41,294 bases of DNA. Origin: a virus. Lineage: Duplodnaviria; Heunggongvirae; Uroviricota; Caudoviricetes. This document shows, piece by piece, positions 13,238-15,406 of the stretch. A model generated the notes under the pieces. The model was not told where the DNA came from and searched no databases. It saw nothing but the letters and a program-made list of their open reading frames with translations. The first letter of the stretch is position 1. The number at the start of each line of letters is the position of its first letter. Location: the IMG/VR virus record IMGVR_UViG_3300033074_000010, positions 1 through 41,294 of that record. One strand, 5' to 3'. Made by a program: the position numbers and the translations under genes.

Positions 13238-13468
13238 TTACTCATCAATGTTACTTCGATACTCCCGTAACTTTTCCAGACTTTCAATTGCTTCCGCTAA
13301 GTCTGTTCCTGTGTCTTTGTGACCGCGCAAGCCCATACACAACAGCTTCTTCAATGCGTGCTGCAACGCCGGGTCGCGGATGTCGAAAGCGCGGAGCACA
13401 TCATAAACGTCTACTGTCATAGTGCTGCCGTGAGTGTTTGTCATTGTGCGGTTGTATTTTGAAGTCAT
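13238..13468 (-). CDS. hypothetical protein (76 aa)
   Basis: ORF track; start overlaps HNH stop (ATGA); RBS GAGG. Confidence 0.45.
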   Translation of the reverse strand: MTSKYNRTMTNTHGSTMTVDVYDVLRAFDIRDPALQHALKKLLCMGLRGHKDTGTDLAEAIESLEKLREYRSNIDE

Positions 13469-13938
13469 TTTCCGTGCCTCTCAGTAAAGTCTTTCTTTTC
13501 TTTGTAAAAACATTCGGCATATCTTACGGCGTCTTCTTTGTGGCCAAAACGCTTGGCTATTCTATTTCCGTTATATTGAATTTGAACGACCCATTTACCG
13601 TTATATGTTTTACTAACCCCGGTAACACCAGACGAGTTATCCCTGCGCTTTGCTGCATTTTTGCAGTTTATGCGCCGGTCGCACAGTCGCAGATTCTCTA
13701 TACGGTTATCGCTTTTCACACCGTTTATGTGGTCAATCTCCTTGCCTTCTGGTATAGCTCCGTTAAACATTTCCCATATAATTCTGTGGGCGAATGTCAT
13801 TTTTGACCCTAGTTTAGTTCTTACATATCCGCGTTGGTCAACGTACCCTACTTTACGCCCTTTCGGGTACTTAGGGTTTACGCTGTCCTTAGCGTAAAGA
13901 CTACCGTTTTCGTATTCGTAAACGTCATTCCATGTCAA
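13465..13938 (-). CDS. HNH homing endonuclease with AP2-like DNA-binding domain
   Basis: HNH motif EIDHINGVKSDNRIENLRL...RRINCKN; AP2-like GVTGVSKTYNGKWVVQIQYNGNRIAKRFGHKEDAVRYAE; TTG start after AGGAGG; AT-rich. Confidence 0.8.
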   Translation of the reverse strand: MTWNDVYEYENGSLYAKDSVNPKYPKGRKVGYVDQRGYVRTKLGSKMTFAHRIIWEMFNGAIPEGKEIDHINGVKSDNRIENLRLCDRRINCKNAAKRRDNSSGVTGVSKTYNGKWVVQIQYNGNRIAKRFGHKEDAVRYAECFYKEKKDFTERHGK

Positions 13939-15074
13939 TTTATACCTCCTATCATTTCTGGTGATATTGTGAGGCGTGCCACCTCCCCATATTCTGCACT
14001 ATAAGTTATCACGTTAGCACTACGACCGGACATCCAGCCCCCTCGCGATGCGTAAGCATCTTTCGCAGCCAGGGTTCGGTGTTGTTCGACTACCATATTG
14101 CGGCTTTCTACTAATTTCTGATGATGTAGATGCCCTACATGAGCGTAGCTGTATGTGCTTTCTCCGAAAGCCTTACGGAATTTAGAAATCATTACCGACT
14201 CTATGGCGTCAAATCTCGCACGGTGTCCGTGATGCATGAATAGCGTAGTTTTCCCGTGCTGAACCATCTTGTATACGTCGGGGGAGGTGTCCACAAATAC
14301 GCGAGGTTCGTTGTCGTACAATGTACAGAACATTTCGGCAAGCCATACAGAGCCTACAGGGTCATGGTTACCTTGAACGATTAAAAGTTTGACTGTGTGA
14401 TGTTTAACAAGCGCCATATCTACCACACGGCGTACCATGCGAATCATGTAGCGCACAAGTTTCTGATAACGCGTATCCGCGTCCAACACATTGCGGGACT
14501 CAGGGGTAACGGCATCCAGACTATCGAAGTGCGCAAAGTCACCAAGCAGGTTAATGACTCCTGTTCCTGCATCCGGTGCTTTCTGAAACGCAGCATCAAA
14601 CCATCGAGAGAACAGGTCTTCTGCAATCTTCATGTCCCAGTCGTCGCCGCTCTCGTCAGCCCATGCCAGCATACCGAGATGAAAATCAGATACAGTGTAA
14701 AGATTAAGTAGTTTATCGTCTCGTTTGGCTCGTGCTGCTTTAACAGGGGCGACTGGCGTAATCTCTGATTTCATTCCTTCGATTACGGCTTTCATCAACT
14801 CGACCTGACGTTCTGCGTCTGTGTCGGTCTTAACCCATTGCAGTTTAGTGTTGCCGAACTCGTCCACCAGTGACGAGGTCCCTTTAATTTTGTAGCCTTC
14901 CGGTACGAGGTGGCTAACGTCGCGCCCGTGGCCTACGCCTTTCTTAGCCAGCTTCGCTTTACGGATACGAATAACGCGGTCTGAGATGCCGTATTTACGG
15001 GCGATGTCTACATTCTTCAACCCGGCGTTCAATTCTTCCTGTAACTGTTCGTCGGTTATTTTCTTATGGGCCAT
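13935..15074 (-). CDS. calcineurin-like metallophosphoesterase with N-terminal HTH region
   Basis: Motifs DxH (SDFHLG), GDxxD (GDFAHFD), GNHD (QGNHDP), GHxH (VGHLHH); N-terminal HTH-like segment; RBS GAGGAAG. Confidence 0.7.
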   Translation of the reverse strand: MAHKKITDEQLQEELNAGLKNVDIARKYGISDRVIRIRKAKLAKKGVGHGRDVSHLVPEGYKIKGTSSLVDEFGNTKLQWVKTDTDAERQVELMKAVIEGMKSEITPVAPVKAARAKRDDKLLNLYTVSDFHLGMLAWADESGDDWDMKIAEDLFSRWFDAAFQKAPDAGTGVINLLGDFAHFDSLDAVTPESRNVLDADTRYQKLVRYMIRMVRRVVDMALVKHHTVKLLIVQGNHDPVGSVWLAEMFCTLYDNEPRVFVDTSPDVYKMVQHGKTTLFMHHGHRARFDAIESVMISKFRKAFGESTYSYAHVGHLHHQKLVESRNMVVEQHRTLAAKDAYASRGGWMSGRSANVITYSAEYGEVARLTISPEMIGGIN

Positions 15075-15112
15075 GCTTACTTCCTCGTGTTTAGGATTTG
15101 TCTTATAGTAGC

Positions 15113-15406
15113 CTACTTATTATCTTGAACAAACTTTTCGAACGCGTCTGCCTTTTCTTTACTATTAGGCGAGAAACGTTTGTGGTTACCCTCTCTCACC
15201 CATTTAGCATTGAACGAGTCCCATAAATCTGCGTTAACTTTAATGCTCTCTTTAACTTCCGAATCTTCCGGTTTAGCGACAGCCGACAGAATTTTATGCA
15301 GAAGCTGAATCTGCTCATTCGCTCTCGAGGCTTTACTAATTACGATAAACAGAAACGCGGTCTGGATAGCGAGCACTACTACGGCAGCGATTAATAGTTC
15401 GAACAT
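15113..15406 (-). CDS. hypothetical membrane protein (97 aa)
   Basis: Likely start ATG 15406 (RBS AGAGGA) giving MFELLIAAVVVLAIQTAFLFIVI TM helix; track ORF extends to 15622 without RBS. Confidence 0.5.
   Translation of the reverse strand: MFELLIAAVVVLAIQTAFLFIVISKASRANEQIQLLHKILSAVAKPEDSEVKESIKVNADLWDSFNAKWVREGNHKRFSPNSKEKADAFEKFVQDNK

Follow-up and report, generated by a model that had tools for sequence, protein, structure and literature searches.

A mosaic antisense island in the tail module of a Kagunavirus-like phage, with a persistent helix-turn-helix metallophosphoesterase and a putative homing endonuclease

IMG/VR record IMGVR_UViG_3300033074_000010, analysed here over its whole length of 41,294 nucleotides (the window), comes from a Kagunavirus-like (Guernseyvirinae) siphophage, which shares 85-90% nucleotide identity by megablast with Kagunavirus and Jerseyvirus genomes over the conserved parts. 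The phage is a Kagunavirus-like coliphage and appears to be virulent. Between its tail tube gene and its tail chaperone genes lies a block of four genes on the opposite strand (Table 1), encoding a 97-aa membrane protein, a helix-turn-helix (HTH) metallophosphoesterase (MPE), an HNH endonuclease and a 76-aa protein, and annotated relatives carry an antisense block at the same place with different contents. Homologues or identical copies in independent genomes indicate that all four minus-strand open reading frames (ORFs) are real genes. The findings described below concern the makeup of this block, which is a mosaic built around one constant gene, that of the MPE.

The list of ORFs places the four genes exactly where the initial annotation had put them, and its further observations that a bidirectional terminator and a promoter bound the block and that the endonuclease gene is AT-rich also held. 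Neighbouring genes of the block overlap by 4 nt (ATGA or TTGA), as is expected for translational coupling. The membrane-protein gene is taken from its ATG, while its mechanical ORF extends to a GTG at 15622. The GC-rich hairpin that ends the block is predicted to terminate transcription on either strand (folding energies -15.5 and -16.9 kcal/mol) and is common to the tube gene on the plus strand and the antisense block on the minus strand; paired terminators are annotated at the equivalent position in Serratia phage Eta. At the other end, the predicted promoter region (15451-15489) is conserved over 42 distinct relatives. Because homology between cassette variants ends only downstream of the promoter -10 element, the promoter is part of the conserved backbone. 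The locus would thus be a self-contained antisense transcription unit running from this promoter to the hairpin. Base composition differs among the genes: against 50.8% GC for the window, the HNH gene has 42.6% (in the lowest 2.4% of equal-sized windows) and the membrane-protein gene 42.2% (in the lowest 3.5%), with 48.8% for the MPE gene and 47.6% for the 76-aa gene.

Table 1. Genes and predicted elements of the antisense block and its surroundings (positions in the window)
Feature	Position	Strand	Basis or remark
Tube gene	12037-13209	+	PF18906 Phage_tube_2, E 7e-38
Predicted bidirectional intrinsic-terminator hairpin, AAGGCCCC-TTTC-GGGGCCTT	13214-13233	both	terminator score on each strand
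76-aa gene	13238-13468	-	ORF list
HNH gene, 157 aa, TTG start	13465-13938	-	ORF list
HTH-metallophosphoesterase (MPE) gene, 379 aa	13935-15074	-	ORF list
Co-conversion tract, recoded MPE 3' end travelling with HNH	13935..14330	-	59 diagnostic sites, identity comparison
MPE domain, residues ~119-375	13950-14720	-	part of MPE
HTH, residues ~8-44	14943-15053	-	part of MPE
Membrane-protein gene, 97 aa from ATG with GAGGAAA ribosome-binding site	15113-15406	-	ORF list
Predicted overlapping promoter, TTGCGC-17-TACTAT	15479..15451	-	version kept in Kaguna- and Jersey-like relatives
Predicted sigma-70-like promoter, ATCACA-17-TATAAT	15489..15461	-	promoter scan
Structured element like Rfam int-alpA RNA (RF02996)	15498-15565, core 15501-15545	+	27.8 bits; 22 nt upstream of chaperone gene
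Tail chaperone gene 1	15587-16003	+	PF08748
Tail chaperone gene 2	16012-16365	+	PF23812

Relatives were sampled without reference to the block by searching IMG/VR with the tube protein, which yielded 76 loci with tube and chaperone genes. The gap between the two genes is 94 bp where there is no insert, and otherwise 140-185 bp, 350-1,600 bp or as much as 3,076 bp; an antisense MPE gene lies inside it at 39 of the 76 loci and is absent from it at the other 37. This variation marks the tube-chaperone site as an insertion hot spot within the tail module. Occupancy by the MPE gene is complete (29 of 29 loci) where the tube protein is at least 88% identical to that of the window, and where the tube proteins are 64-70% identical the chaperone gene either follows the tube gene directly, at gaps of 94-185 bp, or is separated from it by small unrelated antisense genes only. 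Because relatives have the tube gene and then the chaperone gene with no insert, the block is dispensable for virion assembly, as the initial annotation had supposed when it proposed this synteny comparison. More distant phages fill the slot in their own ways: in Serratia phage Eta it holds paired terminators, divergent promoters and a single 111-aa signal-peptide protein, and no MPE was found anywhere in that genome, while Shewanella phage 3/49 carries a pair of small genes in it, one of which encodes a membrane-spanning protein.

The MPE gene also occurs elsewhere in the structural module. Two IMG/VR genomes of a related lineage (L044 and L072) carry an antisense MPE gene, 82% identical, at 4001-5116, in a different structural-module gap that follows a homologue of window gene 6539-7000. 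The equivalent gap of the window (7001-7341) is 340 bp long and contains hairpin terminators and no credible ORF. One of these terminators, at 7005-7022, is nearly identical in sequence to that of the tube gene. The second location indicates that the MPE gene acts as an antisense unit in its own right, one that has changed slots.

Comparison of 46 block-bearing loci showed that the MPE gene alone is constant, surrounded by at least four upstream and at least six downstream cassette types, the upstream-slot variants having been compared by direct alignment. The promoter-proximal slot holds a T4 Imm-type superinfection protein in Bas74 (Imm_superinfect, PF14373, E 9e-13), a 108-aa signal-peptide protein or other small proteins in further genomes, and the 97-aa protein in the window. 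The distal slot contains the 76-aa gene alone, with an HNH gene, with a 66-aa or 77-aa gene, or with a Rha/KilAC antirepressor-like gene; in a variant lacking the 76-aa gene it contains a HAD_PNKP phosphatase and a P-loop kinase. Sliding identity comparisons indicate that the block is a mosaic of independently evolving parts and not one cassette: the membrane cassette of the window is 98-99% identical to that of one relative (L082), the 5' two-thirds of the MPE gene are typical of Kagunavirus, and the 3' third together with the HNH gene is 94-99% identical to HNH-bearing genomes. The promoter-proximal slot would be a holder of small envelope proteins and the distal slot a place for the 76-aa protein with or without mobile or nucleotide-metabolism cassettes, which in the window would have gained an HNH homing endonuclease.

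These patterns bear on the earlier description of the block as an accessory, horizontally acquired four-gene operon. Accessory status and horizontal acquisition suit the site itself and the HNH and membrane-protein genes, which are foreign in composition and sporadic in occurrence; they do not suit the MPE gene, which has backbone composition, is present in all 29 close relatives, and was classed as a persistent gene, found in 508 of 522 Drexlerviridae, in a published pangenome analysis (PMC13164509). A single four-gene acquisition is therefore not upheld. The same can be said of the functional pairing of membrane protein and MPE that had been suggested, as the same MPE stands behind at least four unrelated upstream cassettes and an identical 97-aa protein precedes several downstream combinations.

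The HNH protein contains an HNH_3 domain (PF13392, E 5e-22), belongs to phrog_99 (E 1e-48), and has I-HmuI (PDB 1u3e, E 3.6e-5) as its nearest solved structure. Among several hundred Guernseyvirinae, it is found at 93% identity or more in only eight phage records, next to an MPE gene every time; these are mostly Salmonella Jerseyviruses. The HNH gene is 95% identical across genera, despite MPE 5' regions that are only ~80% identical in DNA to that of the window. Its lineage occurs in one of the 76 tube-anchored loci, and other HNH lineages occur in a few. The insertion is exact, falling between the MPE stop codon and the start codon of the 76-aa gene with overlapping start and stop codons kept, and the insert brings its own AGGAGG ribosome-binding site and changes the MPE C-terminus from ...PEMLG to ...PEMIGGIN.

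The insert is accompanied by a co-conversion tract. Fifty-nine diagnostic sites tell HNH carriers from non-carriers, and all lie within 14327-13935, at the 3' end of the MPE gene; none was found in the 76-aa gene in the same comparison, making the tract one-sided. Over this segment the window is 94-99% identical to other HNH carriers, Salmonella phage PST-H1 included, and 72-79% identical to more than 60 HNH-less genomes regardless of genus, and the 5' part of the MPE gene shows the opposite pattern. Because the MPE protein stays 91% identical across the tract, most of the changes are synonymous. The sporadic distribution, the precise intergenic insertion and the one-sided tract together identify the HNH protein, as far as sequence comparison can, as a free-standing homing endonuclease, whose gene came in together with some 400 bp of recoded sequence from the 3' end of the MPE gene. 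The enzyme would cleave HNH-less MPE alleles a few hundred base pairs upstream of the insertion point and would probably spread by repair, dragging this recoded segment along. The putative cleavage position is ~14100-14330, a segment that by coordinate arithmetic encodes MPE motifs IV and V. One HNH-less Kagunavirus (L084, Logan DRR684565 contig, MPE gene at 5333-6463) has donor-type alleles only in the part of the tract farthest from the insertion, at ~14097-14327, and would be either a cleavage-resistant recombinant or a product of HNH loss; a partial tract of this kind would follow from a cut site some hundreds of bases upstream, at ~14100-14330.

Like homing endonucleases of the I-HmuI type or the T4 Seg/Mob type, the window HNH combines an HNH_3 domain with insertion between two conserved genes, sporadic distribution and a flanking, mostly synonymous co-conversion tract. 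It differs in not being intron-encoded, and its target would lie in the MPE gene. The same junction in SCS92 is occupied by a different HNH, only ~30% identical, and homing endonucleases seem to have targeted the 3' end of the MPE gene repeatedly. HNH genes follow an orthologous MPE gene in T1 (L090, 40822-42510), a Vibrio phage, Salmonella phage SEW_9 and a Stutzerimonas prophage, and in the Drexlerviridae HNH genes are also among those that follow the MPE gene (PMC13164509). Altogether, HNH_3-type genes were observed directly after the MPE gene in at least five unrelated phage lineages, with at least two distinct HNH lineages inside Kagunavirus. In Salmonella phage JD02 (OL652658.1, 31737-34063), the MPE match falls into two pieces over 2.3 kb with a 'Rha family transcriptional regulator' annotated between them, which suggests an insertion inside the MPE gene.

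The gene for the 97-aa membrane protein is an accessory cassette, judging from its slot and its base composition. The protein is single-pass, with one N-terminal hydrophobic helix and a charged tail. A match to PF13974 YebO (E 7e-4) reached 20.1 bits, where the gathering cutoff is 27; what the protein has in common with E. coli YebO is one transmembrane helix and a juxtamembrane motif, RKAS-R-x-NEQ-x-x-LL, limited to ~21 residues. A tblastn search of 50,697 phage records gave no match, and only 5 clusters among 1.84 billion representatives matched. An identical protein is nonetheless encoded on 21 metagenomic Kagunavirus contigs, in the promoter-proximal slot every time, and 8 of these contigs had four different distal combinations downstream, none of them with HNH. 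By analogy with Imm-like occupants of this slot, the protein may act at the inner membrane, possibly in superinfection exclusion. Unlike the slot occupant of Bas74, it is not an Imm homologue.

Encoded at the other end of the block, the 76-aa protein belongs to phrog_2452 (E 2e-36) and has no family match in Pfam or NCBIfam. A tblastn search detected it in 774 phage records; its small gene mostly stands by itself there, often at a great distance from an MPE gene, and it is absent from the Kagunavirus variants that carry the HAD-phosphatase and kinase genes. Sequence matches thus place it in a widespread family of small phage proteins, as semi-conserved cargo of the distal slot. An obligate partnership with the MPE was considered and rejected, since roughly half of the Kagunavirus loci lack the gene and in other families its usual location is elsewhere.

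The constant gene of the block encodes an enzyme with an intact active site. All motifs expected of binuclear metallophosphoesterases (DxH, GD, GNH(D/E), H and GHxH) are present, and in an alignment of 124 sequences at ~40% identity the five motifs are invariant (D130/H132, G178/D179, G235/N236/H237, H282 and G314/H315/H317). Motif II reads G178-D179-F-A-H182, with H182 also invariant among the 124, and this GD-x-x-H arrangement we take to be the Mre11-like motif-II histidine. Pfam models Metallophos and Metallophos_2 both match, each under its cutoff. The N-terminal HTH is supported by matches to GerE, HTH_28, HTH_1 and HTH_50 within the family, and it is conserved over the whole family. A relationship between this HTH and the small terminase of the phage itself was ruled out, the two having no similarity.

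A profile-based homologue search yielded nothing beyond the near-identical clade already sampled; the more diverse alignment on which the modelling was based came from a search seeded with a Rhodobacter homologue. The resulting AlphaFold model (mean pLDDT 80.7) has a three-helix HTH followed by a beta-hairpin and a helix and then by the phosphoesterase domain, with its beta-sandwich phosphoesterase fold. Foldseek returned Rv0805, Mre11 and PolD DP1 at similar E-values, the best being that of Rv0805, and sequence identity to the Mre11/SbcD nuclease domain is 12-15%. Sequence searches of solved structures, made with the protein and with a nine-sequence profile, matched the HTH alone, and weakly, and a fold search of BFVD gave many unnamed phage phosphoesterases and no functional lead. 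The model contains no capping domain, and no Rad50/SbcC-like or SMC-like ATPase was found among the ten large window ORFs outside the head-to-tail-tip run, which are those for a helicase, methylase, polymerase, SSB/annealing protein, exonuclease, primase-helicase, resolvase and tailspike. Because neither feature was found, the MPE is not a canonical Mre11/SbcD. With the nuclease-domain fold and GD-x-x-H motif of that family and an N-terminal HTH in place of the capping domain or partner, the modelled protein is best described as an HTH-tethered, Mre11-like stand-alone phosphoesterase.

The MPE belongs to a large family. Residues 4-375 align with positions 2-389 of the 390-position profile of PHROG 704, "DNA repair exonuclease" (E 2e-161), a name that is an annotation; no tested function for PHROG 704 or the MPE family was found in the literature searched, nor was anything usable found there on a Kagunavirus or Jerseyvirus phosphoesterase, on transcriptomes or on escape mutants mapping to the MPE gene. 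Relatives were detected by tblastn in 2,017 phage records, from Kaguna-, Jersey-, Dhillon-, Weber- and Guelph-viruses to phages of Vibrio, Rhodobacter, Rhizobium and Campylobacter. The HTH plus MPE architecture of the window protein is that of the family of PHROG 704, T1 ST16 and phiEB49 gp12, in which a persistent gene is followed by a variable slot, and BLASTP aligned T1 ST16 with the window MPE at 45% identity over 377 aa, the N-terminal domain included. In other genomes the gene is flanked by replication and lysis genes, or else by lysis and terminase genes, in contrast to its antisense position inside the tail module of the window. In the Drexlerviridae the variable position after the gene holds PNK, dNMP kinase, SH3 or HNH genes (PMC13164509), and in three unrelated lineages (Kagunavirus, Webervirus and a Yersinia phage) it is followed by genes for a HAD phosphatase of PNKP type and a P-loop protein resembling (d)NMP kinases, both of types whose substrates are nucleotides or DNA ends. 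Campylobacter phages have an HTH-less version that adjoins a DNA ligase and a resolvase.

Relatives 36-52% identical to the MPE were also seen in apparent prophages on bacterial contigs (L095-L164) of Pseudomonas, Stutzerimonas, Bordetella, Paraburkholderia, Brevundimonas and others, typically after a lysozyme or NinG gene and before the terminase, several of them adjoining a dATP/dGTP diphosphohydrolase-like gene (PF18909). Contigs that carry such prophage homologues reach 4.4 Mb, and the proposal that the MPE is confined to virulent phages, which would have favoured a part in host-DNA degradation, was rejected on this account.

Taken as a whole, the locus is best explained, in our judgement with moderate confidence, as an antisense unit in an insertion hot spot, comprising an HTH-MPE that is always present in the Kaguna/Jersey lineage and would serve as a DNA nuclease for nucleotide salvage, two cassette slots, and a homing HNH endonuclease. 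Conservation of the HTH throughout the family, together with the fold class, is the reason why we infer that DNA is the substrate: the HTH would tether the enzyme to DNA, which the MPE would cut or resect with Mn2+. Its most likely role would be DNA breakdown feeding nucleotide salvage, possibly via attack on host DNA, and a second possible role would be end-processing for recombination-dependent replication. Roberts and Drexler (1981) reportedly observed raised transduction frequencies in T1 mutants defective in host-DNA degradation. T1 and TLS degrade host DNA and reuse its nucleotides, and the enzyme responsible was stated to be unidentified (PMC11447400); T1 carries the MPE orthologue ST16. 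A1, a predicted metallo-phosphatase of T5, is both needed for the degradation of host DNA and enough to bring it about (bioRxiv 10.64898/2026.04.02.716235). A1, of 556 aa, works with a separate DNA-binding protein, A2, and a dNMP phosphatase, whereas the window MPE, of 379 aa, has its HTH fused and a phosphatase and a kinase as frequent neighbours, a likeness that is one of analogy only. The more specific proposal that the HTH-MPE is a fused analogue of A1 and A2 with which T1-like, Dhillonvirus and Guernseyvirinae siphophages dismantle the host chromosome and recycle its nucleotides, and that its gene is a recurrent homing target through the conserved codons of its catalytic motifs, is in our view doubtful. 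Homology of the MPE to T5 A1 or A2 was tried as an explanation and dropped, BLASTP having detected no sequence similarity to either, and T5 is kept as a functional analogy. Several observations weigh against the favoured explanation. Besides the missing similarity to A1 and A2, homologues in prophages within large bacterial contigs, located between lysis and terminase genes, fit poorly with wholesale destruction of the host chromosome; its recombination variant would be partly redundant, because, besides the MPE, the phage has genes for an exonuclease, an annealing/SSB protein and a resolvase; and on the side of the membrane protein, the YebO similarity lies under the Pfam cutoff and the proposed role is drawn solely from the usual occupants of its slot.

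The main rival to DNA breakdown for salvage is that the MPE processes ends or branched intermediates of the phage's own DNA, in recombination-dependent replication or concatemer maturation, and is not a degrader of host DNA. This is possible, though we think it rather improbable. Mre11 and SbcD, its nearest relatives by fold, are nucleases of double-strand-break repair, the Drexlerviridae gene comes after helicase, VRR-NUC and methylase genes, the HTH-less Campylobacter-phage version stands beside a ligase and a resolvase, and occurrence in temperate prophages is easier to reconcile with such a role. It is weakened by the missing capping domain and by the lack of a Rad50/SbcC-like partner among the scanned ORFs, by the recombination functions that the phage already has, by the position of the Kagunavirus gene in an accessory slot apart from the replication module, and by recurrent neighbours that are nucleotide-metabolism genes. 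Counter-defence or RNA end-healing is a less likely alternative, in which the MPE would be a phosphodiesterase acting on cyclic or linear nucleotide signals, or would heal 2',3'-cyclic-phosphate RNA ends with the PNKP-type phosphatase, and the membrane protein would be a second host-interaction factor. The best Foldseek E-value for the cyclic-nucleotide phosphodiesterase Rv0805, the PNKP-type phosphatase that often adjoins the MPE and the accessory-island architecture of the locus are in keeping with it. Family-wide conservation of the HTH, however, speaks for a polymeric nucleic acid as the substrate, the loci examined showed no RNA ligase beside the MPE, membrane protein and MPE assort independently, and persistence on the scale seen in the Drexlerviridae is unusual for an anti-defence gene. 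Moreover, PADLOC, which bears on the anti-defence cassette suggested in the initial annotation, gave no match for the MPE, the membrane protein or the 76-aa protein and only generic homing-endonuclease models for the HNH, and MPE-carrying BASEL Kagunaviruses are highly sensitive to the restriction-modification systems tested and variably so to Old (PMC11990801); this alternative is therefore held to be improbable. A regulatory function, in which the protein would mainly control transcription from the divergent control region of the tail operon or of late genes and its MPE domain would be a sensor or decayed, is very improbable: similarity to LuxR/FixJ-type HTHs, a weak match to a late-activator PHROG and the structured control region adjoining the gene would suit a regulator, but the invariance of all catalytic residues shows that the enzyme is under selection, and the same architecture is present in genomes where the gene is far from tail genes.

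The divergent control region between the block and the chaperone genes contains a single copy in the window of an element resembling int-alpA RNA. It measures 45-68 nt and consists of an outer 5-bp stem around two 4-bp hairpins. The RF02996 gathering score of 35.8 bits is above that of the window element (27.8 bits), and relatives score 35.8 (L001), 35.0 (L087) and 33.5 (L046). Alignment of 42 distinct sequences gave pairing in 98% of cells and compensatory changes at 6 of 13 pairs, values matched by none of 500 shuffles, and this covariation supports the fold. Earlier descriptions of the int-alpA motif reportedly place it between the int and alpA genes of prophages or satellite-like elements of enterobacteria. 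Here the element is a likely 5' leader of the tail operon in a virulent-type phage, which may hint at a shared regulatory target. The chaperone genes downstream were seen to be mosaic too, with relatives falling, when scored against the window proteins, into discrete classes of ~200/160/130 bits for the first gene and ~97/112/92/66 bits for the second, independently of block cargo.

The locus joins a moron-like accessory island within a late operon to a homing endonuclease of the free-standing kind and a member of a large annotated phosphoesterase family, all three of them familiar. Morons of lambdoid phages, as reported by Hendrix and colleagues, are additional genes that stand among late genes and have a promoter and a terminator of their own. 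The block resembles them in its predicted promoter and terminator, its absence from some relatives and the deviant composition of two of its four genes; it differs in belonging to an apparently virulent phage, for which prophage expression is not relevant, and in having a central gene that is backbone-like and persistent in the subfamily. As an accessory island with a homing endonuclease the locus is ordinary, being present and annotated in hundreds of public genomes. Its constant gene is of greater note, as it encodes an HTH-fused, catalytically intact, Mre11-like phosphoesterase that is found in ~2,000 sequenced phages and is hardly ever absent from T1-like ones. The family offers a specific candidate for the enzyme of T1-type host-DNA degradation, a question left open in PMC11447400, and the candidate can be tested in the BASEL Kagunaviruses, which are small and engineerable. 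The two flanking slots, in turn, are natural places in which to seek new superinfection-exclusion or host-interaction genes.

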